64,000 nt of DNA from Bryobacteraceae bacterium (GTDB taxonomy: Bacteria > Acidobacteriota > Terriglobia > Bryobacterales > Bryobacteraceae). A model generated the notes under the pieces. The model was not told the DNA's origin, made no database searches, and saw nothing but the letters and a program-made list of their open reading frames with translations. The stretch is from contig JAWKHI010000018.1 in the NCBI GenBank assembly GCA_041394885.1, forward strand, positions 48,754 to 112,753. The letters are read 5' to 3'. Position numbers and translations under genes: made by a program. Numbering within the stretch: position 1 is the stretch's first letter; the number at the start of each line of letters is the position of its first letter. Shown piece by piece: positions 14,379-54,821 of the stretch.

Positions 14379-14783
14379 TCAACTGGCCGAAAGCACTTCG
14401 AATCCCCGCCCGCCGCGTAGAGCGCGGGCAAACGTCACAGTGGACGCCGCTCCGGCGCGCGCATTGGCTCGTCCGATATAGTAATCCGCAAAGTCACCGC
14501 GGCCGCCGGTCCAGTCCCCGAATGCTTGCCAGACCGTCTCCTTGTCCACGACTTCGAATTGCGCCGTTCGCAAGATACGTTCGATGACGGTGTTGATGTC
14601 GCCCTTGCGGAATCCATAGCAGTCTTCCAATACCCAGATCAGTTCGCAGATCACCACCGGCTGGATCACCAGGCGCACGCCCGACTCAGCCGCTTGCCCG
14701 ATCACCCGATTCGCCTGGGCAGCCTGCCGCGGGTCATCCTGCGTCAGGTACCGGACGAGGACGTTGGTGTCCAGGCCTTTCAC
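14379..14783 (-). CDS. vapC: PIN-domain toxin (VapC family)
   Basis: MKGLDTNVLVRYLTQDD has the canonical PIN N-terminus. 134 aa. Overlaps the upstream antitoxin by 4 nt. Confidence 0.85.
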   Translation of the reverse strand: MKGLDTNVLVRYLTQDDPRQAAQANRVIGQAAESGVRLVIQPVVICELIWVLEDCYGFRKGDINTVIERILRTAQFEVVDKETVWQAFGDWTGGRGDFADYYIGRANARAGAASTVTFARALRGGRGFEVLSAS

Positions 14784-15040
14784 CCCTTCCGTCCACGGGC
14801 CTTCGCGCCCGCCCGCCGCCGGACCGCCTCATGCATCGTCTCCACCGGCACCGCCGCCTGGCCCGAACGCGCAAGCGCTCCCTGCAAGCTACGGACATCC
14901 ACCTTCGCCGGGCGGATCTGCACGTCGCCGCTATCGAGCACCACGAAATCGAGTTGGTCCCCCGGGTGGAGTCCGAGGTGGTCGCGGATCGGCTTTGGGA
15001 TCACCAGTTGGCCCTTCACCGTCAGTGTTGCGGTATGCAT
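14780..15040 (-). CDS. AbrB/MazE/SpoVT-type antitoxin
   Basis: LTVKGQLVIPKPIRDHLGLHPGDQLDFVV is the swapped-hairpin AbrB-fold signature. Confidence 0.8.
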   Translation of the reverse strand: MHTATLTVKGQLVIPKPIRDHLGLHPGDQLDFVVLDSGDVQIRPAKVDVRSLQGALARSGQAAVPVETMHEAVRRRAGAKARGRKG

Positions 15041-15166: not shown

Positions 15167-17755
15167 ATGTCTTCGGAGCGCGACTCGGTCACGTTACTGC
15201 ACCTGTCCGACACTCAGTTCGGGCGTAACCACCGGTTCGGCAATCTTGGCGTAACTCCTCAGGATGGTGCGTTCGATACCTTGTTCAAGCGGCTGGAAAT
15301 CGATCTGGCGGGGCTGAAGAAAGAGCACGACGTCGTGCCGGAAGCCGTGGTGGTGACCGGCGATCTGGCGGAGTGGGGCCGGACGAGCGAGGTCCAGGAC
15401 GTTCTCGAGTTCCTGGCGCGGCTTTCGGATCCGCTGGGCGTTCCACGGTCGCACGTGGCGATCGTTCCGGGGAACCACGACATCAATCGCGCCAACTGCA
15501 CGGCGTACTTTGCAGAATGCGAGGGCAACGAGACCAAGCCCATGCCGCCCTATTGGCCGAAGTGGAAGCATTACGCGTGGATGTTCGAGGAGTTTTATCG
15601 CGGTGTCGACGGCGTGTCGTTCCGGGAAGGCGAGCCGTGGACGCTTTGGGAGATGCCGGAACTTCGGCTGGTGGTGGCCGGACTGAATTCGACGATGGTG
15701 GAGAGCCATGTTGACGGCACCCACTACGGATGGGCGGGCGAAGCCCAATTGCGGTGGTTCCATGAGCGCATGGACCGGTATGAACGCGCCGCATGGACGC
15801 GGCTGGGGTTGATCCATCACAACGTGCTGCGCAAGGCCGTGGACGACGATGAAAACCTGCACGATGCAGAGAAGCTCGAACAGATACTTGCCCCGTCGCT
15901 CGATCTTCTTCTGCACGGGCACACCCACAACGGCAAGATGGGACGGCTGGACAAGCTCCCGGTGCTGTCCACGGGAAGCACGGCGTTGCAGTCCGGCCAG
16001 CGGCCGGCGGAGGTGCCGAATCAATATCAGTGCCTGCGGCTGTCGGCGGATGGGATCGAGCGTTGGACGCGTGGGTACGATCCGCAGCGGGGCGACTGGA
16101 TCGGCGACAATCGGTCTTCGCGGCGCGGCGGCGAGTGGTTCACGAAAGAGAAGGTAGCGTTTCCGGCGTTTGGGAACTCCAGCGCGCCCGCGCCGCCCAA
16201 GCCGCTGCACGACCCTCGCCGGTACATCCAGGCGCTACTCGAGGAGACCTCCTACATCGACGTGCAGGGGCTGAAGTTCGGCGACAACCGGGCGTATCAA
16301 TTCGCCATCGAGGAGTTCTATATCCCGTTGACGACGTCCGCGGGCAGCGCGCAAACTGGCGACAAGCCGGAAGCATCGCGCGAACGCGAGGTCCCGTTAG
16401 TGGACGCGCTCCGGTCGCATCGCAAGCTGCTGGTGGTGGGCGACCCGGGTTCCGGCAAGAGCACGTTCCTGAAACGAGTGACGCACCAGATGTGCCGCGA
16501 ATATGGCGACGCCGCGCCGCTGCCGGTGGCGATGGGCGCGGCGGCGCTGGCCGGCCATATCGCGCTGCATCATGGGAAAGACGGTCCGGCTGAGCGGTGG
16601 TCCCCGGACTGGATTCCGCTGTACGCGGCAGCGCATTGCGCGGAGCGCAACCGGGGCCTGGACGCGGAATACTTTCGGGAGAGACTGAAGTCCGGCGGCT
16701 GTCACGTGCTGATCGACGGATTGGACGAGACTCCGGACGAAGCGTCGCGCGTGAACATGGCGCACCTGATTCGCGATGCGGCGGCGGCGTTCGACGGGTG
16801 CCGGTTCGTGGTGACGTCGCGCCCGGAGGGGAAGGTGGCGATACGCGGCTTCGAGGAAGCTCTGATCGGGGAGGTGCAGCCGGCGGAAATGCTGGCGTAC
16901 CTCGAGAAACTGGCAAGGCATCTGTACGCCAGCGATCCGGTGAAGGAGACGAGGTTTCGCCAGGATCTGGCGGCGGCCGTGAACGGGCGTCGCGAGATCC
17001 GGAAGATGACGCGGAATCCGGTGATGCTGACGGCGCTGGCGGTGCTGCAACACAACGAAGTGAAGCTGCCGGAGAATCGGGTGGATCTGTACGGGTCCAT
17101 TCTGGAGTGGCTGTCGAAGCAGCGAGCGAGGAAGGACCGTTTGCCGGCCACCGAGTGCCTGTTGCGGCTGCGGGAGTTGGCGCTGGCGATGCAGGATCAT
17201 GAGGACGGCCGCCAGAAGCAGGCGCCGGTGGCCTGGGCGGGCGAGACTCTGGCTCGGCACTTCGGGAATCGCGAAAGGGCGGAGCGGTTCCTGCGCGCCG
17301 AGCAGGCCGATAGCGGGATCGTGGTGAGCCGTGGAACCGACATCGCTTATTGGCACCTGACGTTTCAGGAGTATCTGGCGGCGCTCGAGATTGCGGGATG
17401 GGAGGACGGCGATCAGCACGCGCTCATCCTGGGCGGGGAGCCGGCGGCCAGGGCCGCGCTCCTTAACGCCCCAAAAAATTCCCGCCTGATCCAGCCCCCC
17501 GCATCGCGTCAAACGGCCGGCGTGATAGTCGCCGCACAACTTGCGAAGACGCCGGCGGAAGCGGACTACATTGGCGCGTGCCAGCCGGGCGTGCGTGGGG
17601 AACAGGCGGAATCCGAGGAACGGGAACCCGTCGCAGCAGCGGTAGACACGGCTCTTACCGGGGTGCAGCGTAAGGCGCAACCCGTAAAGGAATTCGCGAT
17701 CCGATCGTGCATGTCGTTGAGTTGCGGCTTGCTATCGGCGAACAGGAGAAGGTGA
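15167..17755 (+). CDS. metallophosphoesterase-NACHT (STAND NTPase) protein; recognisable sequence ends near 17440 and the last ~105 codons of the ORF read antisense through an RT fragment
   Basis: All five calcineurin-like motifs are present: LHLSDTQFG, VTGDLAEWG, VPGNHD, LIHHNVL, LHGHTHNG. Then Walker A VVGDPGSGKST, a Walker B-like HVLIDGLDE and a NACHT-type helical region. Confidence 0.75.
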   Translation: MSSERDSVTLLHLSDTQFGRNHRFGNLGVTPQDGAFDTLFKRLEIDLAGLKKEHDVVPEAVVVTGDLAEWGRTSEVQDVLEFLARLSDPLGVPRSHVAIVPGNHDINRANCTAYFAECEGNETKPMPPYWPKWKHYAWMFEEFYRGVDGVSFREGEPWTLWEMPELRLVVAGLNSTMVESHVDGTHYGWAGEAQLRWFHERMDRYERAAWTRLGLIHHNVLRKAVDDDENLHDAEKLEQILAPSLDLLLHGHTHNGKMGRLDKLPVLSTGSTALQSGQRPAEVPNQYQCLRLSADGIERWTRGYDPQRGDWIGDNRSSRRGGEWFTKEKVAFPAFGNSSAPAPPKPLHDPRRYIQALLEETSYIDVQGLKFGDNRAYQFAIEEFYIPLTTSAGSAQTGDKPEASREREVPLVDALRSHRKLLVVGDPGSGKSTFLKRVTHQMCREYGDAAPLPVAMGAAALAGHIALHHGKDGPAERWSPDWIPLYAAAHCAERNRGLDAEYFRERLKSGGCHVLIDGLDETPDEASRVNMAHLIRDAAAAFDGCRFVVTSRPEGKVAIRGFEEALIGEVQPAEMLAYLEKLARHLYASDPVKETRFRQDLAAAVNGRREIRKMTRNPVMLTALAVLQHNEVKLPENRVDLYGSILEWLSKQRARKDRLPATECLLRLRELALAMQDHEDGRQKQAPVAWAGETLARHFGNRERAERFLRAEQADSGIVVSRGTDIAYWHLTFQEYLAALEIAGWEDGDQHALILGGEPAARAALLNAPKNSRLIQPPASRQTAGVIVAAQLAKTPAEADYIGACQPGVRGEQAESEEREPVAAAVDTALTGVQRKAQPVKEFAIRSCMSLSCGLLSANRRR
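17470..17751 (-). pseudogene. C-terminal fragment of a DGR-type reverse transcriptase (starts just after the YxDD box; one frameshift near 17685)
   Basis: Two frames in the ORF track join as LLLFADSKPQLNDMHDRIANSFTG / LRLTLHPGKSRVYRCCDGFPFLGFRLFPTHARLARANVVRFRRRLRKL. The lower boundary is uncertain (17440-17505). Confidence 0.65.
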
Positions 17756-17790
17756 GTGGGCCCGGGGAATCTCACCCCGAGCCCCTCGCA

Positions 17791-17824
17791 GAACCGTACG
17801 TGAGCGTCTCCGCTCATACGGCTC
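17791..17824 (-). ncRNA. group II intron domain V
   Basis: The minus strand reads GAGCCGTATGAGCG-GAGA-CGCTCACGTACGGTTC. It has the AGC catalytic triad, a 2-nt AC bulge, a GNRA tetraloop and is 34 nt long. Confidence 0.85.
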
Positions 17825-18390
17825 CCATCACAGAACCGCGTCTTTCTCCCATATGCCAGTGCGCCCACAACTTCGGATCGCGTCTCGAGATCGTCGCGAT
17901 CCATTGCGCCGCCCTCCGCATTTGCCGCCTGAGGCTCTTGTACTTCCTTGAGGCCCAGCGCGCCAGCGTTCGGTCCAGTTACTTCATCGCCGGATACAGT
18001 GCCGAGCGGTAATACCGCCCGTAGTATTGGATCCACCCTCGAACCACCGGGTGAACATCCGGGACAGATCGTCCAGATCCTTGTCGCTGCGCAGATGCAG
18101 CTTCCAGCTCCGGATCTCTGCCCGAATCTTCCGGACCGCTTTATCCGACACGGCCGGACTGAAGTTGACGAAGTACTTCCCCTTCCAGTTCTTCGATCTC
18201 CGAGGCCGAAATGTGTACCCCAGAAAATCGAACTTCTCGTGCAGGTATGTCCTTCGCCGGTCATCATCCTTGCAATAGACGATCTTCGTCTTGTCCGGAT
18301 GTAGCTCCAGCCGGCAATCTCGCATCCGCGCTTCCAGTTCTCCCTGCGACGTGTTGGAGAATAACTCCGGCTGGCAGGCATTAGGTACAA
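17814..18390 (-). pseudogene. group II intron-encoded reverse transcriptase/maturase remnant (5'-truncated, one frameshift, one in-frame TAA)
   Basis: RLELHPDKTKIVYCKDDDRRRTYLHEKFDFLGYTFRPR...DLSRMF, then a frame change to NPVVRGWIQYYGRYYRSALYPAMK*LDRTLARWASRKYKSLR...DPKLWAHW. The TAA is at 17979..17981. Confidence 0.8.
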
Positions 18391-18413
18391 TCACGGTTCC
18401 ATAGGAGGCAAAT

Positions 18414-20924
18414 ATGCATCGCCCACACTTCCTGGGGGCCATCTGGCTGCTCTACGCCGGCGCTGCCGCAGCCCAGCCGCCGCTGAACTGCACGGCCCAG
18501 GCCGCGGGGACGCCTCAGATCCGCTCGGAAGGCGTTTCCGAACTCGTCGGCGACATCCTGATCATCTGCAGCAGCGGAAGCCCGGCAGGCCCAGTAGAAC
18601 AACTCCGGTTGCTTGACATCCTAGTGACAACCAGTTCATCGATCGACATCACGGGTCGCATCGGTCCGGATGGCCAACTGACCGAGGCATTGGCGTTCTT
18701 CGACGAGCCAATGCCCAGTCTTCAGCATCCCTGCGGGAGCCCATCCGCTCCCTACTCAATTCCGCCGGGCTCGGGTTCACTGCTACCTGGAGTGTGCGGT
18801 GCTCACGCGGGGTCGCCCTCCGGCAATGGAATCGGCGCCTATGATCCCAGTATCAATGCTCCTATTCTTACGGTTGGCGCCACAACCTATCAGACCCACC
18901 GTGCCAATGCATTTCAGGCTCGCCGTCTCACGAGTAACACGATCGTTTGGAAAAGCGTACCGTTCGACGATCCAGGCATCCTCAGCACCCGCATCATCCG
19001 GTTGACTAACTTGCGCGTCAACGCAAGTCAACTCGGTGTGCCGCTGGGGCAGCAGGCCGTTGTCCAGACGATCATTACCGCGATCCCCAGCACGGGTGGC
19101 CCTGTCCCTGTTACGAATAACGCCCCGACCGTCGCCATCGCCCAGCCGGGTGTGTCATTCGCGGTGGTTGACAAGCCTACCTGTTTGCAGTCAAACCCGG
19201 CCAACGCCGCCTTCGCTGCGTCAGCGGTGAATCCACTGACAGCGCTCGGCAGCCGGTGCGACGGAAGGGCCGCGTTGCTACGCTTCGAGGAATACTTCCC
19301 GTCGGCGTTCAAACGGCGCGCTTGGGACCCGAGCCAGGCCATCGATGTTCCAGGCCAGCCCACCTCACAGGATGTTCTCGGGTATCCCTTCTTCACCGAA
19401 TCCGGCATCTTCAAAGCCGCGACTTCCAGTTTCTGGCCGGCGACCCTGCAAAACGGCCAACCCGCGGCTGGCACGGCGCCCGGCACTCTCGGCTTGGCGG
19501 ATTCGGCAACGCGGCTAGTGGTGCGATTTCAGAACATCCAGAACGGGGTAGCGGTATGGCTGGGTACGAGCGTGCCCATCTACACATCGGCCAGCCCCGC
19601 CGTCCGCACCGGAACCGCGCGCCTCGTCCAGACCGATGCTAACGGCGCGGGCGAGTTCAACGTAATTAGTCCTGGCGCTTCACCGGCCAATTTCCGCACC
19701 GTCTCGAGTGTAACTCCGATCCCGCCAGGCTACGATAATGACGGGCTCCATCGCCTGACAGTCTCCGCCGGGGCAGGCTACGCGGTCTACGAACTGGTGC
19801 ACGCCGATACCACCCAACTGGAACGGGTGGACATCCCGGTGGTGTTTGCCTACGCCTCGAACCCCGGCGCGAACCTGCCCTCGTTCGGCACCGCCACCGT
19901 GAGCGGCGCCCTGGGCCCGGCCAGTGCGATCGCGTCTGCCAGCGCCACCGCTCCGCTGCCGCGCTTTGTCGACAGCGGCGCGGCGGCACCTGTGCTGACC
20001 ATCACCAGTGCGGGCATGCCGTCGCCGCGGCCTCCCTCGCCCACCTCCGGCGCGGGCCTCGCGCAGACGTTCACTTTCCAGTTCGACGATGCCGACGGCG
20101 CGGGCGATCTTTCCGTGCTCAACGTCCTGATCAACAACGCCATCGACGGCCGCCAGTCCTGTTACATCGCCTACGTGCCCTCAGGCCCCGGCACCGGGAC
20201 GATGTTCCTGGTGAATGACGCCGGCGACGCCGGGGGACCGTTCGCGGGCGCGCTCGCGATCCCGAGCACGGCCTCCATCGGCAATTCGCAATGCCAGATT
20301 CACGGCACGGGATCGTCCGCGTCCTTCTCAGGCGCGCGGCTCGCGCTCGCTTTGAACGTCACCTTCGCCGGAACCTACGCTGGCCGCCGAATCGTGTATC
20401 AAGCCGCGCGAGACCGGGCGGGCAACAACTCGGGATGGGTGGCCAAAGGAGTCTGGACGGTTCCCGGCGCAGCGCCCACTTCTCCGCGTGTCGACGCATC
20501 CACGCCGCCGCGCACCGAGGCGTCGACGTTCACGCTGACGACGACTTTCACCGACGACGATGGCTTCGCGGATTTGGGCGTGCTGAACATCCTAGTGAAC
20601 AATGCCGTCGATGGGCGACAGGCCTGCTACGCCGCGTTCGTGCGGTCTGCCAACACGCTCGTGCTGGTCAACGACGCCGGTGACGCCGGAGGACCGTTCG
20701 CGGGGTCGATCGCCATCCCGGGCGGATCGAACGCGTCCAACAGCCAATGCCGGATTGACGCGAGCGGGTCCGTGGTGGGGAGCGCCGGAAAATCCATTTT
20801 CCTGACGCTTCGCTTCACTTTCTTCGCGCCGTTCCGCGGCGACCGGATCGTTTACGCGGCGGCCCGGGATACGGTTGAGAACTCCTCCGGTTGGCAGGCC
20901 ATCGGGACGGTGACGGTTCCCTAG
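18414..20924 (+). CDS. large secreted hypothetical protein with two tandem ~133-aa C-terminal domains
   Basis: 836-aa ORF with GGAGG 7 nt upstream and the signal peptide FLGAIWLLYAGAAAAQ. Internal repeats at 20067..20465 and 20526..20921. Confidence 0.75.
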   Translation: MHRPHFLGAIWLLYAGAAAAQPPLNCTAQAAGTPQIRSEGVSELVGDILIICSSGSPAGPVEQLRLLDILVTTSSSIDITGRIGPDGQLTEALAFFDEPMPSLQHPCGSPSAPYSIPPGSGSLLPGVCGAHAGSPSGNGIGAYDPSINAPILTVGATTYQTHRANAFQARRLTSNTIVWKSVPFDDPGILSTRIIRLTNLRVNASQLGVPLGQQAVVQTIITAIPSTGGPVPVTNNAPTVAIAQPGVSFAVVDKPTCLQSNPANAAFAASAVNPLTALGSRCDGRAALLRFEEYFPSAFKRRAWDPSQAIDVPGQPTSQDVLGYPFFTESGIFKAATSSFWPATLQNGQPAAGTAPGTLGLADSATRLVVRFQNIQNGVAVWLGTSVPIYTSASPAVRTGTARLVQTDANGAGEFNVISPGASPANFRTVSSVTPIPPGYDNDGLHRLTVSAGAGYAVYELVHADTTQLERVDIPVVFAYASNPGANLPSFGTATVSGALGPASAIASASATAPLPRFVDSGAAAPVLTITSAGMPSPRPPSPTSGAGLAQTFTFQFDDADGAGDLSVLNVLINNAIDGRQSCYIAYVPSGPGTGTMFLVNDAGDAGGPFAGALAIPSTASIGNSQCQIHGTGSSASFSGARLALALNVTFAGTYAGRRIVYQAARDRAGNNSGWVAKGVWTVPGAAPTSPRVDASTPPRTEASTFTLTTTFTDDDGFADLGVLNILVNNAVDGRQACYAAFVRSANTLVLVNDAGDAGGPFAGSIAIPGGSNASNSQCRIDASGSVVGSAGKSIFLTLRFTFFAPFRGDRIVYAAARDTVENSSGWQAIGTVTVP

Positions 20925-26597: not shown

Positions 26598-27813
26598 ATG
26601 CGCCCCTCCGCTGTGGTATTTCTGGCACCGGTACTCTGCCTTGGCGCGGACTGGTCCGTGGACATCGAGCAAGTCACGCACGGACCCGAGCATCACTTCT
26701 TCGGGTATATCGGCCACGCGAAGACCATCCCGTGGAACCAAAGCGGGCGTTATATGCTGACGCTGCGGACGCGATTTCAGGACCATATGCCGGCCGCGAA
26801 CGACGCCGCGGATGTGGCGGTGATCGATACGCGGGACAACAACCGGGTAGTGGTGCTCGATCGCACGCGCGCGTGGAACTTCCAGCAAGGGACGATGTTC
26901 TATTGGAACCCGGAGGCGCCCGAGACGCAGTTTTTCTTCAACGACCGGGATGTTGCGAGCAATCAGGTGTTCGCGGTGCTCTACGACGTGGCGGCGCGGA
27001 AGCGGATCCGCGAATTCCGGTACCGGGATACGCCGTTCGGCAATTCCGGCGTGTCCCCGGCGGGCGGATCTTTCCTGGGTCTGAACTACGGCCGCATGGC
27101 GCACTCTGCGGCCGGTGACCGGCTATCCAGTGCGCACGGCGGAGCAAGACACCGGCGCCAACGATGATGGCGTGTTCCTGGTGGACACCAAGAACGGACG
27201 CAAGCGCCTGCTGGTCTCGTTTGCCCGGTTGGCGGAAGCGATCCGGCCGCACCGCCCCGATGTGATGGGGCGCGAGCTTTTCATCAACCACACACTGTGG
27301 AATCGCGACGCTTCGCGCATCTACTTCTACGTGCGCGCGGACTTCGGCTCCCGCACCCGCATCGATGTTCCGGTGAGTATCCATCCCGACGGGAGCGGCC
27401 TTACGGTCCACACGCGGCATGTGGGGGGGCACCCGGAGTGGGAGTTTGGATCGAAGCTGTTCGGCATCGACGGCAAGCGGCTGATCCTTTATGACATCGA
27501 TAGCCAGACGATCGTGGGCCAAGTGGGGACGCCCGAGATCATCCCCGATCCCGGCGGCGATTCGGCGCTTTCGCCGGACGGGAAGTGGTTCGTGAACGGG
27601 TATCGGGACAAAGGCAGCAACCACTACGTGATTCTTCGGCGGGAAGACGGGAGTTTCCATCGAACACGGGGATTTCCGCATCCGGGATGGACGAGCGGAG
27701 ACCTGCGGCTGGATGCGGCTCCGGCGTGGAATCGGGATGGGACGAGGATTGCGTTTCCGGCCATCGCGGCGGACGGGACTCGCCAGACATTCGTGATGAC
27801 GATCCGGCGATAG
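26598..27813 (+). pseudogene. secreted beta-propeller-type protein split by one frameshift near 27095-27115
   Basis: ORFs 26598..27167 and 27115..27813 join as ...GLNYGRMA / RTLRPVTGYP.... Signal peptide MRPSAVVFLAPVLCLGA. PD40-like PDGKWF and DGTRIAF strands. Confidence 0.65.
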
Positions 27814-28289: not shown

Positions 28290-28445
28290 TCAGGTTGATG
28301 TCGCGATTTCGATCTCCTTGATCAACGACAATGCGAGCATCCGGTCGTGATCCAGATCGCCGCGATCTCTTCCTTCCACGAAAGACCGTGCCTCTCTCGC
28401 GGCATCCAACATATGAGTGAGACGAATGCGGTCAGCCTCGCTCAT
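28290..28445 (-). pseudogene. HEPN (DUF86) toxin, N-terminal 51 codons only
   Basis: Hand translation gives MSEADRIRLTHMLDAAREARSFVEGRDRGDLDHDRMLALSLIKEIEIATST*. The sequence stops where IGEAA and the Rx4H motif normally follow. The ATG overlaps the MNT stop. Confidence 0.6.
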
Positions 28446-28726
28446 ACTGAACAAACACTTCGCTTACCACGCGATCTCGAAAGTAGCGGCTCAACTCAGC
28501 CGGCGTGCGAAGATCCACCTTTCGTCCCAGCATGGTGGAAAGCTCGTCTTCCATACGCGCCAGATCCAAGTAGGTGATGGCCGCGGTGGGCTCGAAATCC
28601 ACGAGCACGGCGGAAATGGCTGGTCAAGATCGAACCGAACAAGGAGAGCTTACGAATGTGGTTTTGCTGGCAGAATCTCTCCACCTGTGCGTGGGGGATC
28701 TCGAGGCCGTGGAGGGACACACTCAT
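28432..28726 (-). pseudogene. MNT-type nucleotidyltransferase antitoxin, disrupted (frameshift or deletion removing the catalytic Asp region)
   Basis: LEIPHAQVERFCQQNHIRKLSLFGSILTSHF, then a frame change to VLVDFEPTAAITYLDLARMEDELSTMLGRKVDLRTPAELS. Confidence 0.65.
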
Positions 28727-28774: not shown

Positions 28775-29113
28775 ATGGACCTCTCCGTCGGCGACAAGCT
28801 CGGCCATACGAGATCACCGGCCTGCTCGGCAAGGGCGGGATGGGCGAGGTGTATCGCGCCACAGACACGCGGCTCCACCGCGACGTCGCGGTTAGAGTCT
28901 CCAGCGAACGGTTCAACGACCGGTTCGAGCGCGAGGCGCGGGCAGTAGCGGCGCTGAACCATCCGCACATTTGCGCCATTTACGGCATTCGGCCCCAACT
29001 ATCTCGTGATGGAGTTAGTGGAAGGCGAGACGCTCTCGGCGCGGATCAAACAAGGGGCAATCCCACTGGACGAGGCGCTGGGAATCGCACGGCAGATCGC
29101 CGAGGCGCTCGAG
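28775..29113 (+). pseudogene. Ser/Thr protein kinase, N-terminal fragment with two frameshifts; truncated before the catalytic loop
   Basis: MDLSVGDKLGH / YEITGLLGKGGMGEVYRATDTRLHRDVAVRV...ALNHPHICAIYG / LVMELVEGETLSARIKQGAIPLDEALGIARQIAEALE. The fragment ends at the shared CTCGAG (29108..29113). Confidence 0.7.
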
Positions 29114-29230
29114 GTTGGCGAGAAACGCGACGTCCACGCGGCGGCGCTTGGCCTTTGCGGCGGCGAGGGCGGCGTCCAGCAGGTTCTGCCAGGCGATAAC
29201 CTCCGGCCACAGATTGCCGACCCGCTTCAT
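29108..29230 (-). pseudogene. DGR-type reverse transcriptase, N-terminal 41 codons only
   Basis: MKRVGNLWPEVIAWQNLLDAALAAAKAKRRRVDVAFLANLE, preceded by GGAGAGG. It lies inside composite ORF 29015..29608. Confidence 0.65.
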
Positions 29231-29566
29231 TTCCTCTCCCGCGCGGCCTTGCGCCAGCCACCGGTGTGCAGCCATTCGTCGGGTGCTGGCCGCGAATTCG
29301 TAGGCGTCGGCGCCGATCAATTTCAGGTCCTTGGAGAGCCGGACCAGAAAGCGGATACGGTTGACGTTGCGGACGGCATGCGTGAGCGGTTCCGCGTTGC
29401 GCGATTCATAGCTGGCGTCGACGAGGTTGGTGAGCAGATCGAGCGAGTGCTGGACGAGGTTCTGGCCTACTGAGAAACGGTGCGATTTTGGGAATTTTTC
29501 GACTTTGGGCAGGATCCATACCGTCCAGTCCTGGGCTCGTTGGACCACCAGCGTTGGTTCGGCCAT
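29231..29566 (-). CDS. avd: Avd-like four-helix-bundle protein (DGR accessory variability determinant)
   Basis: MAEPTLVVQRAQDWTVWILPKVEKFPKSHRFSVGQNLVQHSLDLLTNLVDASY...IRFLVRLSKDLKLIGADAYEF. 112 codons with the characteristic FPK..R(F/Y) pattern. No stop codon before the RT ATG. Confidence 0.7.
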
Positions 29567-29595
29567 GGCTCTGTATGGTACTCGCAAATTTTCCG

Positions 29596-29620
29596 GCAAA
29601 GGGGGCAAGCCCCTATTTGC
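29596..29620 (-). other. GC-rich hairpin between the VR-bearing gene and avd
   Basis: The minus strand reads GCAAA-TA-GGGG-CTTG-CCCC-C-TTTGC: a 5-bp and a 4-bp stem with a tetraloop, 74 nt past the target stop. Confidence 0.5.
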
Positions 29621-29693
29621 AATCCCCGCCGGTTTCTCCGATCCCCAGCAGGCGTGTCTTCAGGGGTAGAGGGTAAAGAAAAAGAATAAAAAC

Positions 29694-31330
29694 TCAACGG
29701 AATTCCCCGGCGCATCGGAACCCAGGGATTGAAACTCGGTTCTCCGGTAGATTCTCGTTCGGGACGACGCGCGGACGTACAGGATTGGTGACCCAGGAGC
29801 CCCCGCGCAACACACGCCTCTTCCCGCTTTCTGGGGGCCCTTCCGGATCTGTTTGTTTCCCTGAGGAATATGGTCCGTGCCAATCCCATACCCATTCCCA
29901 GACGTTCCCCAACGTGTCATACGGCCCCATTGATTCGGCTCTTTCTGCTTCACAGGGTGCGTTGTGTTCCCGATTTTCTCTAGAGTCGCAACGTACTCAC
30001 CGGATTTCTCCCGCCACAACTTCTCCTGTATCCAGCCGCTCACGTCCACTGTTGTTCCCATACCACGCGATCTCGTCTAGCGCCCCATAGCGAGCCCCGT
30101 CGTCCCAGCCCGCGCCGCATACTCCCACTCCGCTTCCGTCGGCAGCCGACCGCCTACCTTCTTGCAATACTGCGCAGCCTCCTCCCAACTCACCCGCTCC
30201 ACGGGATTCGCCCCTACCTTTGAAATGGCTCGGATTCTGCCCCATCACCCGCTCCGCCTCCTGCGTCACAGGCGTTTCCCCGATCAAAAGCCACGGCTGA
30301 TCGTCACCTCTTGGCGAGGCTTTTCGTTATCCCACCGCTTCCTTGTCGCCCTCAGGCGCCCATCAGGAACGTTCCCGGCGGAATCCAGATGTACACTGGG
30401 CCGTCCAACGGGTTCATCCACTTGTCCCCAGCGAGGCGTACTGTACCTGACTTGCGCACTTCCAACGCGGCGCGCAAAGGTTCACCGTGGTCCGCAGCGT
30501 GTTGTTTCCGGGCTGATCGCTTACGGCAAGCCAGGGAGGTCTTGCATTCTGTCCACGCGCCGGGCCCAAACCACCAGACCACCTTCCGCTGGTTAGCCTG
30601 TTGGGAAGTAATCGAGGCGAGGCTCTCGCCCAGTTCGAGCAGCACCATCTGTTCGAGATCCCCATAGTTGGGATAGGCGGCCAACAGCGCTGCTATCAGT
30701 TGCTTCAACTCCTTGCCATCGCGCATTCCCGCTCGCGTCGCGAGCCGTGGAGCAGCCCCTCCGGCCTCATCGCCTCCCAGGACCGCAGCGGTGTCTTCTG
30801 GTGGAGGGGCCGGCGTAGGGGCGGGCGGAGTGTGGACGCGGCGAATCGCGGCCTTCACGTCACGGGCGAGGCTCTCGATGCGCTTCTTGCCTTCGACGGG
30901 ATAGGACTCGTAGTGACGGTAGTCCTCCCAACTGGTGTATTGGCGCTCGCGCAGAAACGCGCCGAGTTGATCGCTCTCGCCGGTAATTTCGTCGGGGGTG
31001 ATCCAGATGACGGCGAGAATCAAGTCGCTGCGTCCCATCCGGAGTTCTCTTTCCCGGAATCGTTCCAATTCGCGGACGCATTCGCGACTCTGGAAGAAGC
31101 TGGGAGAAAGGATCGCGATGAGGAAGGTGACCGAGTCCAGAGACTGGTCTATGCGCTGTTTCCAATTTTCGCCCCACTTCAGTTCGGCCCGGTCCTGAAA
31201 AACCTCGAATACGCTTGCCGATCTGCTGGCGGATTTCCCGTTGGAGGCGTTCGACAAAGCGCGTGACTTCGCCTTCGGCGTCGTCGGCGTGGGCGTAGCT
31301 GAGGAAGGCTCCGGCGTCAGATGGCGGCAT
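29694..31330 (-). pseudogene. TIR - EAD1 - FGE-sulfatase(C-type lectin fold) protein, putative DGR target, with about ten frame changes
   Basis: Pieces appear in six ORF-track entries. TIR: FLSYAHADDAEGE...FQDRAELKWGENW...FLIAILSPSFFQSRECVRELE. EAD1: LKQLIAALLAAYPNYGDLEQMVLLELGESL...PGNNTLR. FGE: [56 protein letters not shown]...GFRCA. Confidence 0.75.
29709..29816 (-). repeat. candidate DGR variable region (VR)
   Basis: The last ~36 codons read RVLRGGSW-VTNPVRPRVVPNENLPENRVSIP-GFRCA. This is the position where FGE-type DGR targets carry their Asn-codon-templated variable scaffold. No TR partner was located. Confidence 0.45.
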
Positions 31331-32914: not shown

Positions 32915-35150
<2,236 letters not shown>

Positions 35151-35154
<4 letters not shown>

Positions 35155-35838
35155 CGGTTGGGAGGAACTGTCGAATTCGTGAAGGCGGACACCATGAACC
35201 GGAATACGCCGAGTCCGTCCACGGACCCCATCAACGGATCCGCGGCGCGTTCGGGATGCGGCATCATGCCCATCACGTTGCGATCGCAATTGAGTACGCC
35301 GGCGATGTTGATGCAGGAACCGTTGGGGTTTGGGTGTAACGGAACGCGACGCGGTCTTCGGCTTGCAGCTCATCGAGGGGTCCGCTGATCGGCGAAGTAG
35401 CAGCCGTCGCCGTGGGCGATGGGCACGCGGATGACCTGTCCTTTTTCGTAGCCGCTGGTGAACGGGGAATTTGCGGTGCTGACCGAGAGGCCGACTTCGC
35501 GGCAGATGAACTTGAGATTCCGGTTGCGGACCAGCGCACCGGGCAACAGGCCGGATTCCCACGAGGATCTGAAAGCCGTTGCAGATGCCGATGACGAGGC
35601 CACCGGCGGCGGCGAATTTCTTCACGGCGCCTAAAACAGGTGAGAATTTCGCAATGGCCCCGCAGCGCAGGTAATCGCCGTAGGAGAAGCCGCCTGGCAG
35701 GATGACGGCGTCCACCGAGCCGACCGACGCGTGGTCATGCCAAAGAAACTCGGCTTGTTGGCCGAGGTTGTTCGTCACTGCGTACCAAGCGTCGTGGTCG
35801 CAGTTGCTGCCAGGAAAGACAACGACCCCGAATTTCAT
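35151..35838 (-). pseudogene. purQ: phosphoribosylformylglycinamidine synthase glutaminase subunit PurQ, read in four frames (three indels at homopolymers)
   Basis: [16 protein letters not shown]...[10 protein letters not shown] / [22 protein letters not shown]...HGDGCYFAD / [17 protein letters not shown] / [29 protein letters not shown]. The stop overlaps the purL ATG (ATGA). Confidence 0.85.
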
Positions 35839-35872
35839 CGTGGAGAGCCTTCAGTGTAGCATCATTGACACA

Positions 35873-36223
35873 ATGGGCTTCTGGAAAAATGAAGTAGTGA
35901 ACCCGTCTCTTGACGAGGACACGGCTCGCAAGATCGGCGAGCAAAAGAGCTGGATTGCCGCCGAACCCGCCAACCCCAGGCCCTACTATCACCTGGCGCA
36001 ACTGTATCGCCTGCAAGGGCGGCAGGATGAGGCCCTCGGGCTGATCCTCGAAGCCGTCCGGCTCGACCCTGATTTTGGCGCGGCGCACATTGCGCTGTCG
36101 GAAATCTACTGTGTGCGCGCCGACTACCCAGCCGCGTGGCGTCACGCGCGGTCGGCGGAGCGGAACGGGCTCCCGGCCGCCGTCGACCTGCTGACCCGGT
36201 ACGGAATCGCGGAAGGCGGCTGA
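35873..36223 (+). CDS. small TPR-like protein (116 aa)
   Basis: Internal ATG at 35873 of ORF 35702..36223. PYYHLAQLYRLQGRQDEALGLILEAVRLDPDFGAAHIALSEIY is TPR-like. The upstream part of the ORF is antisense of purQ. Confidence 0.6.
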   Translation: MGFWKNEVVNPSLDEDTARKIGEQKSWIAAEPANPRPYYHLAQLYRLQGRQDEALGLILEAVRLDPDFGAAHIALSEIYCVRADYPAAWRHARSAERNGLPAAVDLLTRYGIAEGG

Positions 36224-36321
36224 GGCTTTTGACGAACGCCCGGTTGCAGGCTGGCCGGTTATGTTAACAACTGCCGGATGTGAAGGAAGTGGCGCTGGCA
36301 GGCACCGGGAAGGAACTACAC

Positions 36322-37161
36322 ATGAGGATGAAGACCGATCATTTTACCTGGATTTGTCCGCAGTGCGGGTCTGAAGTGCCCCCCCACCTGAACGAATGCC
36401 CGCAGTGCGCGGAAAGAGCTGCCCAAACGGGTGGAGCCCCTCCGGCCCAGACTGCCGCGCCTCAGCCTCCTGCTCCGCAATATCCGCAGCAGGGCCGCCG
36501 GCTCCTGCCTGGCAGGGTTATCCACCGCAGCAGGCATACGCGCCTCCGCCTCCTCCTCCGCAGGGTCCGCCGCCGCAGTACGCGCAGCAGCCCCAATATG
36601 CGCCGCCGCCGCATCCGCAGTATGCCCCGCAGCAGCATCCGCAGCAACCCTATGGCCAGCCTCCGCCGCAGCAATATGGACGGCCGCAGTACGCCCCATA
36701 GGCCGGACCGCCGGCGTGGCTGGTGACCATCGGCGTCGCGGCGCTGGCGGGCATCCTGGTAGCGGGATTTTACTATTACGTCTCCAACCGCAGTGCTTCG
36801 GCTTCGGTGAAGACAACCGACACGACGGAAGAGACCAAGGGGGGCGGCGGCGAGGCGGCCTCCAATCAATCAAGCATCTGGAAGTGGCCGGCGTCAGGAT
36901 TTTCGAAGAGGGTAAGAAGCCGCGGCTGCGCCTGCTGCTGAGTACGAATCACGCATTGGCGGATCTGGCGGACCTGAAAAGCTCGATCATTGGGTGGTGC
37001 TGAAGGATGGCGGCAAGGAAGTGGGCGAAATGCCCTTTGCCCTGGCGCAACTTCGATCGTTCGACGCCCAGGAGATCGAGGGTCCGCTCAAGACCAGCCT
37101 ACGCGCGTACGAACTCCCCGACTGGCAGTTTGTCCGCGCCGAGCTGCGGCTCAAAGAGTAA
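36322..37161 (+). pseudogene. zinc-ribbon / PQ-rich / single-TM / C-terminal domain protein with three frameshifts and one in-frame TAG
   Basis: MRMKTDHFTWICPQCGSEVPPHLNECPQCA... / ...QGYPPQQAYAPPPPPPQGPPPQYAQQ...QYAP* / AGPPAWLVTIGVAALAGILVAGFYYYV... / KHLEVAGVRIFEEGKKPRLRLLL... / LDHWVVLKDGGKEVGEMPFALAQLRSFDAQEIEGPL...LRLKE*. Confidence 0.6.
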
Positions 37162-53621: not shown

Positions 53622-54821
53622 TCAGCCGGCGGATTTTCTGACACGCGCCGGTGGAGCGTCAATGGCGTCGAGCAGGACATGCACGTCGAAAGCTTCCACG
53701 CCCGGGGCGAGCGCCCGCGTGGGCGGCGCCGAGGGTGATTTGCGGTGGATGACGGCAGCACGCACCTCGACCTGGCCTCCGATTGAGCGCCGCAGGGATT
53801 CGATCGGCCTAGCCATGGCGGGGTGGACGGTCTTGGAGGCCTTGCACTCCACTATCCACAGGCGTCCGCGTTTGTCGGGGAACAGGAAGTCGACTTCGAG
53901 GCCCTGCTGATCGCGGAAATGATACAGCTCTTTTCTACGGCCCTGATTGACCTGGTGCTTCAGGATCTCGGCGGCGACGAAGCCTTCAAAGAGGGAGCCG
54001 AGGAACGGGGACCGGTCGAGTTCGGCGGGGGTGGTGATGCCAAGGAGGTGGCAGGCCATGCCGGAGTCTGTGATGTAAACCTTCGGAGATTTGATGAGGC
54101 GCTTGCCGAAGTTCTCGAAGTAGGGCGGAACGAGCATAATCTGGCCCGTGATCTCGAGCACGTGGAGCCAGTCGCCCACGGTAGGGACGGTGACTCCGAG
54201 GGGAGAGGCGATATCGGTTTTGTTGAGAATCTTGCCGTGCCGGCTGGCCAGGAGCGCGAGGAAGCGGCGGAAGGTGGCGAGGTCCCGGACGTTGACGATG
54301 GAGCGAACATCGCGCTCGAGATAGGTTTGGATGTAGGAGTCAAACCAAAGGGCGCGGCTCTTGGGGCGGGCGGCTACTTCCGGAAAACCGCCGTGAAGAA
54401 GGGTGACGCGGCTGGATTCGGCGACGCTGAGCGGGAGGAGTTGGAGGATGGCGGCGCGTCCCGCCATTGACTCCGCGACGCCCTGCATGAGAGGGGCCTC
54501 TTGCGAGCCAGTGAAGAGCCACTGGCCGGTTTTCCGGGGATGCCGGTCAATGCGGGTGCGGATATAGCCGAACAACTCGGGGACGTTCTGGATTTCGTCG
54601 AATAGGACTGGAGGGCGGAGTTCGTCGATGAGGGTGCGGGGGTCGGAGCGGGCGCGGGTCTGGATGTCGGAATCTTCGAGGAGGATGTATTGGGCGCGAG
54701 GGAAATAGCGCCGCAGGAGGGTTGTTTTGCCGGTGCGTCGAGGGCCTGTTACGACGACGGCGGGGAAGGCCCGGACGGCGTCGAGGAGGACGGCGTCGAT
54801 GGATCGGGAGAGGAACCGCAT
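53622..54821 (-). CDS. AAA-family ATPase with a DUF4143-type C-terminal domain
   Basis: VVVTGPRRTGKTTLL Walker A, LFDEIQNVPELF Walker B. About 400 aa with the architecture typical of the AAA_14/DUF4143 family. Confidence 0.8.
   Translation of the reverse strand: MRFLSRSIDAVLLDAVRAFPAVVVTGPRRTGKTTLLRRYFPRAQYILLEDSDIQTRARSDPRTLIDELRPPVLFDEIQNVPELFGYIRTRIDRHPRKTGQWLFTGSQEAPLMQGVAESMAGRAAILQLLPLSVAESSRVTLLHGGFPEVAARPKSRALWFDSYIQTYLERDVRSIVNVRDLATFRRFLALLASRHGKILNKTDIASPLGVTVPTVGDWLHVLEITGQIMLVPPYFENFGKRLIKSPKVYITDSGMACHLLGITTPAELDRSPFLGSLFEGFVAAEILKHQVNQGRRKELYHFRDQQGLEVDFLFPDKRGRLWIVECKASKTVHPAMARPIESLRRSIGGQVEVRAAVIHRKSPSAPPTRALAPGVEAFDVHVLLDAIDAPPARVRKSAG

Follow-up and report, generated by a model that had tools for sequence, protein, structure and literature searches.

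What is the element whose parts lie on the minus strand between positions 31330 and 29108 of a 64,000-nt stretch of DNA from a soil bacterium of the Bryobacteraceae (contig JAWKHI010000018.1, positions 48,754 to 112,753, of assembly GCA_041394885.1; the whole stretch is referred to hereafter as the window), and has it been cut short, has it died, or has it been spoiled in the assembly? Read from 31330 to 29108, the minus strand contains a gene encoding a TIR_2-EAD1-FGE/C-type-lectin protein with a variable repeat (VR) at its C-terminus, a GC hairpin, the gene avd and the first 41 codons of a reverse transcriptase (RT). These parts and their order had been put forward in the original prediction, a reading of the sequence alone that described a decayed diversity-generating retroelement (DGR), and every feature was found where it had been placed, with Pfam, tblastn and DNA homology in agreement. 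We put the probability at about 0.7 that the locus is a truncated copy of a DGR of a Bryobacterales lineage, of the type in which avd is followed by the RT gene and then by the template repeat (TR), known as architecture B2. The cassette is a degenerate representative of a kind of DGR that has already been described, and such degeneration has itself been documented before; we class it as degenerate because, as assembled, it has neither a complete RT of the DGR clade with motifs 1–7 nor, within the window, a TR/VR pair, two features by which a functional DGR is defined. The locus comprises the following features.

29694–31330, minus strand: DGR target gene, TIR_2-EAD1-FGE-sulfatase (C-type lectin fold), identified by Pfam on the pieces and the stitched protein and by frameshift-aware alignments; approximate domain spans TIR 31306–30930, EAD1 30717–30470 and FGE 30390–29706, all minus strand.
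29704–29818 (core about 29727–29792), minus strand: VR at the 3' end of the target gene, identified by alignment to the TR of the related locus L028.
29596–29620, minus strand: GC hairpin GCAAATAGGGGC-TT-GCCCCCTTTGC in the 127-nt spacer between target and avd, identified by comparison with relatives.
29227–29566, minus strand: avd (accessory variability determinant), 114 codons, identified by identity to protein P0121 and the profiles bAvd and DivGenRetAVD.
29108–29230, minus strand: RT remnant, codons 1–41, identified by tblastn with the RT of L028.
29108–29113, no strand: junction, palindromic CTCGAG, read directly from the sequence.
28801–29113, plus strand: Ser/Thr protein kinase gene, 5' fragment, running towards the RT remnant (convergent), identified by Pfam on the stitched fragment.

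The reading frames of the target gene were stitched by eye and then verified by frameshift-aware alignments with six intact homologues, resulting in a frame-corrected gene of about 553 codons (a stitched protein of 553 residues). The TIR, EAD1 and FGE domains that had been predicted were recognised by Pfam in the uncorrected pieces (TIR_2, E 3e-10; EAD1, E 2e-5; FGE-sulfatase, E 5e-14 and 9e-14) and again in the corrected protein, where FGE-sulfatase scored 161.7 bits over profile positions 6–254 of 255, TIR_2 51.8 bits and EAD1 (PF19955) 37.0 bits over positions 4–86 of 90. While the domains were thus all recovered, the frame changes, which had been taken as a possible sign of a dead element, proved to be a weak one, as set out below. 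The C-terminus reads ...RVLRGGSW-VTNPVRPRVVPNENLPENRVSIP-GFRCAGEFR*, and endings of the GFRCAGEFR type are common to targets adjoining Avd genes in related genomes. The TIR domain is a putative NAD-consuming effector, and a stretch ...SRECVRELE... with a glutamate is visible in the sequence. The combination of TIR, EAD1 and a diversified sensor corresponds to the sensor-adaptor-effector layout proposed for conflict systems.

The last approximately 36 codons of the target had been proposed to be the variable region. The TR of L028, the closest one available, served as reference; the Avd of that locus (P0185) is of the family second-closest to the window Avd, and the representative of this family, P0122, is 83% identical to the window Avd. 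The proposed codons align to this TR with differences that are biased towards adenines: 12/28 TR-adenine sites differ, compared with 9/87 other sites (Fisher p 3.4e-4), and the bias is still seen when the comparison is restricted to the variable core (p 0.034). Both flanks are identical to those of the L028 TR (26/26 and 20/20 positions), and the 3' boundary of the VR, which falls between GGGTTCCGATGCGCCGGGGA and ATTCC, is identical to the end of the L028 VR, departing from the end of the TR exactly where the L028 VR does. The VR is 3 bases short relative to the L028 TR. On this alignment the VR bears the mark of past mutagenesis at adenines from a related TR, with additional damage; alternatively, the extra differences may have arisen because the TR of the window element itself was unlike that of L028.

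Target recognition in a functional DGR involves elements at the 3' end of the VR, namely the IMH and a hairpin close by. The hairpin of the window lies about 80 nt downstream of the VR and is not adjacent to it. The same hairpin (TTGCAAAGGGGGC...GCCCCCTTTGC, followed by runs of A/T) occupies the equal position in L028 and L009, and comparable G/C hairpins are present in L006, L010, L011 and L013. It may act as a terminator; no terminator or promoter consensus was matched at the hairpin, and the fold of the whole spacer was no more stable than those of shuffled sequences (z 0.71).

The Avd-like gene of the original prediction is borne out by P0121, a protein from a Bryobacteraceae metagenome-assembled genome (MAG) that is named 'diversity-generating retroelement protein Avd' by NCBI and with which the first 93 residues share 98% identity. 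The C-terminal 12 residues match P0121 as well (12/12), in another frame, and codons 94 to 102, approximately, are garbled, with a net loss of about 5 nt in about 33 nt according to a hand alignment to the P0121 protein; the garbled stretch adjoins 279 nt free of indels. Because of these approximately 33 nt near the 3' end of avd, the profile matches to Avd stayed below their cut-offs (bAvd, 36.7 bits, E 6e-9, Pfam cut-off 40; NCBIfam DivGenRetAVD, 59.7 bits, E 2.7e-16, cut-off 80), and the bAvd score rose to 59.6 bits once the garbled stretch was replaced with the residues of P0121. The same frameshifted stretch accounts for the earlier claim that Avd runs into the RT with no intervening stop, which was mistaken: the corrected Avd ends in ...GGWRKAARERK, and its stop codon (29229–29227) overlaps the ATG of the RT (29230–29228) as ATGA, an overlap that is likewise present in relatives.

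The RT remnant (MKRVGNLWPEV...FLANLE) is 71% identical to residues 1–42 of the L028 RT (tblastn, E 2.4e-13) and lies upstream of all catalytic motifs. Homology stops there, as had been predicted, and the DNA homology to the L028 cassette ends at 29107. Profile support for the two proteins was obtained in part: Avd was matched, below cut-off, whereas neither RVT_1 nor NCBIfam gave a match to the 41-codon RT remnant, as is to be expected of so short a fragment.

The palindrome CTCGAG at the cut end is common to the last RT codons (..NLE, minus strand) and the last kinase codons (..ALE, plus strand). The kinase fragment encodes about 110 residues covering Pkinase positions 1–112 of 263 (Pfam, E 3.7e-12), is shifted in frame once, near 29005, and is 41–49% identical to a kinase-TPR protein of locus L015. 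Two convergent genes are each short of their 3' part, and the truncation of the RT is most simply explained by one deletion with microhomology of 6 bp, which would have removed the TR too. No repeats or sequences resembling miniature inverted-repeat transposable elements (MITEs) were found at this junction or at those at 17400 and 18442. We also asked whether the kinase fragment might begin a second DGR target; this found no support, its best match being an ordinary kinase-TPR protein and its C-terminal part being absent from the rest of the window. In the interval that separates the kinase fragment from the next gene, fragments of an NTP_transf_2 nucleotidyltransferase (28290–28726, minus strand; E 9.5e-5) with a frameshift were observed, followed by a short open reading frame (ORF) that by eye resembles a truncated DUF86/HEPN partner and had no Pfam match; together these are probably a broken toxin-antitoxin-like pair.

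To look for a TR, both strands of the window were scanned without gaps, the VR and its sub-windows serving as queries; plain matches and matches tolerating differences at TR adenines were both scored. In line with the original prediction none was found, the best non-self match to the VR being 58/151 bases, which is at chance level. Relatives of the locus indicate why it is missing. The comparison drew on Avd-related loci, 26 of them in GTDB genomes and 80 in metagenomes, and on L028 and L111, which were reached through their proteins; we counted the 34 Avd-related loci that have a TR/VR pair with at least 75% of mismatches at TR adenines. In 30/34 of these, the VR is followed after 84–140 nt by avd, then by the RT gene, and the TR starts 1069–1113 nt past the end of avd, so that TR and RT gene overlap at the 3' end of the latter; this avd-RT-TR order is architecture B2 of Wu et al. 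(PMC5758913). L028 and L111 (GCA_902826685.1) are intact cassettes, the latter consisting of a TIR_2-FGE target, Avd, RT and a TR that lies about 1063 nt past the end of avd in the same geometry, with 19/19 TR/VR mismatches at TR adenines. Up to RT codon 41, the VR-avd spacing and the ATGA overlap of the window agree with L028, L111 and the 30/34 loci of the clade. The TR of the window is missing because the 3' part of the RT gene, where it sits, was cut away; by this geometry its place would be expected about 1.1 kb beyond 29230, inside the part removed with the RT. The absence of an avd-TR-RT spacing, to which the original prediction had drawn attention as unusual, is what the relatives have, and a search for a TR between avd and RT fails by design in a clade in which the TR comes after the RT. 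No near-identical intact orthologous locus was found in GTDB representative genomes or JGI metagenomes, where the best Avd identity was 73–78%.

Conserved blocks were also seen by eye some 60–250 nt downstream of the TR in L001, L006, L009, L010, L011 and L013, for example ...CCACGGAG.TTCCGGG..., ...GTTTCCGGGCCGT..., ...TCCCGACGCC... and ...CAAA.AGCAA...CCCGGG.TT.C.GGTAGC. These may represent a structured 3' part of the DGR RNA of the clade.

How the intact element would have worked is taken from established DGR biology (PMC7159879, PMC10907252). The TR at the 3' end of the RT gene would be transcribed, RT and Avd would copy the TR RNA into cDNA while misincorporating opposite adenines, and the cDNA would replace the VR, the part that codes for the face with which the C-terminal FGE/C-type-lectin domain binds its ligand. 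The intact ancestor may in this way have rewritten its lectin-fold surface, with the N-terminal TIR domain as effector and the middle EAD1 as adaptor for homotypic recruitment, and a deletion between the convergent RT and kinase genes would then have taken the 3' part of the RT together with the TR. In its assembled form the cassette is unable to diversify its own target. This target may be intact in the cell, its specificity being either frozen or served in trans.

As sequenced, the target carries 11–13 frame changes, close to the ten or so counted in the original prediction, which rightly considered that consensus error, and not decay, might be responsible. TIR contains one of them, EAD1 three and FGE seven, and two more may lie in the VR; +1 and -1 changes are balanced. 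We favour an error of the consensus or assembly over decay as the cause of the frame changes, by a modest degree. Local assembly error is suspected mainly on account of a second region, about 4 kb from the locus, where housekeeping genes are similarly affected.

35075–36941, minus and plus strands: frame-shifted purQ and N-terminus of purL with the neighbouring gene.

Within about 500 nt, purQ contains three frame changes and the N-terminus of purL one or two, and the adjoining gene, encoding a zinc-ribbon, PQ-rich membrane protein, is shifted twice. Another nearby gene, on the plus strand at 26598–27813 and unmatched in Pfam, is also shifted once: a frameshift at about 27110–27165 divides it into two ORFs that overlap. 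By comparison, purF, most of purL and many ORFs of 2–3.5 kb are clean. The corrected target has all three domains at full length and is without an in-frame stop over about 550 codons, and its FGE domain is 58–65% identical to intact homologues that are themselves 38–55% identical to each other. Several observations weigh against our preferred reading. The zones dense in frameshifts are mostly non-essential or mobile DNA, namely the retroelement debris at 17.4–18.4 kb and the island at 27.1–31.2 kb, so that two of the three such zones are exactly mobile or accessory DNA, as real decay would give. Relative to the L028 TR, the VR shows 9 non-adenine differences and 3 missing bases, compared with 0–4 non-adenine differences in intact pairs. 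Long homopolymer runs, examined as a sign of nanopore-type errors, are not depleted in the frameshift-dense zones; taken with the balanced mix of +1 and -1 changes, this means that a simple model of homopolymer-deletion error does not fit.

Of the rival explanations, the one that survives best is that the island is truly dead, i.e. that the truncated RT, the lost TR, the approximately 12 frameshifts, the garbled Avd and the broken kinase and nucleotidyltransferase are all biological and the locus is an old pseudogenised DGR. It draws on the gathering of the damage in accessory and mobile DNA while long housekeeping ORFs remain intact, on the non-adenine differences and indels of the VR, on a second broken RT and half an intron elsewhere in the window (described below), which give it the look of a retroelement graveyard, and on degenerate DGR loci documented in other genomes (PMC10907252). 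We nevertheless consider it unlikely, given that purQ and the N-terminus of purL are equally dense in frameshifts, that about 550 target codons contain zero nonsense codons in spite of some 12 indels, with divergence not raised, and that the loss of 5 bases within 33 nt of an avd that is otherwise 98% identical to its relative would be odd for mutation. Our preferred reading of a truncated B2-type cassette with sequence errors in its target carries a caution for other loci, as clusters of frameshifts in draft MAGs can pass for pseudogenisation.

The relative in question also bears on the two remaining alternatives. The window ORF 29015–29566 is residue for residue identical to MEZ5354270.1, encoded on a 125,639-nt contig of an NCBI Bryobacteraceae MAG, and P0121 (MEZ5357127.1), the intact Avd with 98% identity, is encoded on a separate contig of 4,354 nt; judging from the nearby accession numbers, it probably comes from the same assembly. 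No RT from this sibling contig was among the best 120 RT relatives. One possibility, which we hold to be less probable than a dead island, is that the TIR-EAD1-FGE gene is intact in vivo and that a sibling DGR, complete and located at another site of the genome, still rewrites its VR in trans. The 98%-identical Avd in what appears to be the same MAG, the conserved VR boundaries (with a 3' end equal to that of the L028 VR) and downstream hairpin, and the completeness of the target domains after frame correction are all compatible with this, and there is a precedent in Thiohalocapsa, where one complete locus per class serves degenerate loci (PMC10907252). It sits poorly with a VR that is 3 bases short and has 9 non-adenine differences from the nearest known TR, and with a window that has no EAD1 partner gene. 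If it were true, a sensor open to hypermutation, an adaptor resembling a death fold and a suicide effector of the TIR type would be joined in a single polypeptide, at a locus that has lost its RT and TR; with the target both intact and variable, this compact fusion of TIR, EAD1 and sensor, served in trans, would extend the published models modestly. Least probable is an assembly chimera, in which the RT/kinase junction was mis-joined and the chromosome really has a complete target-avd-RT-TR cassette, for although the junction lies inside the error-dense zone at 27.1–31.2 kb and the 4,354-nt contig of apparently the same MAG, with its intact 98%-identical avd, could be the correct or an alternative version, composition is alike on both sides of the junction, the contig runs on for kilobases each way, the best RT relatives in the protein collection include none from the 4,354-nt contig, and a second convergent-truncation junction of the same type exists at about 17400.

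That second junction belongs to a group of features some 12 kb from the truncated B2-type cassette.

17430–17748, minus strand: second, separate fragment of a DGR-type RT, from residue 233 or so to residue 340 or so, identified by tblastn.
17749–18442, minus strand: 3' half of a group II intron (C-terminal part of the RT/maturase and domains V–VI), identified by Rfam RF00029.
15167–17400, plus strand: ORF encoding a Metallophos-NACHT STAND NTPase, convergent with the second RT fragment, identified by Pfam.

The second RT fragment opens with LLFADSK... at 17748, right after the position of the YVDDF box, contains at least two frameshifts, ends about 20 codons short and has no TR; an intact DGR RT used as tblastn query also matches 17695–17405. 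It is 82–86% identical to P0257 and P0280 and 48% identical to the L028 RT. The nearest relatives of the two RT fragments of the window differ (r = -0.40 over 120 RTs), and the fragments are therefore treated as remnants of two different DGRs, an assignment that is provisional given that the 41 residues of the first are a short sample. A single inversion reuniting the two fragments was considered and rejected, as no breakpoint pair restores a gene and the nearest relatives differ. The intron was recognised by RF00029 at 17826–17751 (60 bits, gathering score 40) and, by eye, by the C-terminal half of its RT/maturase, to which Pfam RVT_1 responded faintly (16.3 bits, cut-off 29.6). About 3 nt at most separate its end from the beginning of the RT fragment, which indicates a former insertion of a group II intron into the RT gene of a DGR. 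The 5' half of the intron is now absent, as is the exon upstream, and intron and RT are both fragments with frameshifts. The Metallophos-NACHT ORF (Metallophos, E 1e-11; NACHT, E 2.4e-7) is clean for 2.2 kb and loses homology just past the winged helix, the remainder of its 862 codons being the antisense of the second RT fragment.

Two further observations concern possible defence genes in the window. An intact ATPase-like protein of 399 residues (53622–54821, minus strand) matches the PADLOC candidate defence family PDC-S01 (E 8e-102). At 14379–15025 on the minus strand, the ORF 14379–14783 (134 codons) resembles a PIN-domain toxin by eye, with a possible small antitoxin ORF upstream; this pair appears intact.

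Targets in which FGE is fused to TIR, kinase, metallophosphatase or NTPase modules were catalogued by Wu et al. 2018 (PMC5758913). The window cassette is most readily compared with the B2 DGR L111: both have a target ending in ...GFRCAGEFR, a spacer of about 100–140 nt, Avd and an overlapping RT, and the FGE domain of the window is 62–65% identical to that of the L111 target P0078, both proteins beginning with a TIR domain. Unlike L111, the window has only 41 RT codons and no TR, its target has an EAD1 between TIR and FGE, and its TIR is of another TIR lineage than that of P0078, in which tblastn gave no match to it.

EAD adaptors were tied to DGR-diversified FGE ('FGS') domains by Kaur, Burroughs, Iyer and Aravind (2020; PMC7159879), and the window target shares this combination of an EAD1 adaptor and a DGR-diversified FGE with the EAD1 conflict systems that they describe. 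In L028 the parts stand in a row, as EAD1-trypsin, an EAD1 protein, an AAA ATPase, the FGE target, Avd and RT, whereas in the window one polypeptide contains the effector (TIR), the adaptor and the sensor. When the six-frame translation of the window was searched with a profile made from four EAD1 sequences, the EAD1 of the target alone was found, with no second EAD1 protein. No NTPase core is adjacent to the target, which is flanked by purF and the Avd/RT remnant, and the sole STAND gene in the window is the truncated Metallophos-NACHT gene 12 kb away. In the protein P0031 the three parts of the target recur, arranged differently (EAD1, TIR-like region, FGE); it has an EAD1-trypsin neighbour and no DGR nearby. 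Close homologues of the target without a DGR in their 6–8 kb flanks were also observed at L109 5142–7591 and L027 8001–9173, one of them consisting of EAD1, a TIR-like region and FGE beside an EAD1-trypsin gene and the other of TIR-FGE alone; such sensors are thus often remote from, or independent of, a DGR cassette.

With the DGR of Bordetella phage BPP-1 (PMC7159879) the clade shares Avd, RT and the adenine-specific transfer from TR to VR into the C-type-lectin fold. The BPP-1 element has the order avd-TR-RT, is carried by a phage and has a tail-fibre target, in contrast to the clade of the window locus, which is chromosomal, has the order avd-RT-TR and has TIR/EAD targets of an intracellular type.

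The closest parallel to the degeneration itself is Thiohalocapsa PB-PSB1, in which Dore et al. (2024) described degenerate DGR loci beside complete siblings (PMC10907252). There, as in the window, chromosomal DGR loci have a missing or pseudogenised RT, TR or accessory gene, and C-type-lectin sensors are fused to TIR, Pkinase, Metallophos, NACHT and EAD modules. The losses in Thiohalocapsa are tied to transposons and MITE-like arrays, unlike the window junctions, which are free of repeats, and its diversification in trans is backed by reads, whereas the window locus is known from an assembly alone. To these systems the locus adds an example from Bryobacteraceae (Acidobacteriota), both of C-type-lectin sensors that DGRs diversify and that are joined to immune-type modules, and of the degeneration of the cassettes concerned.

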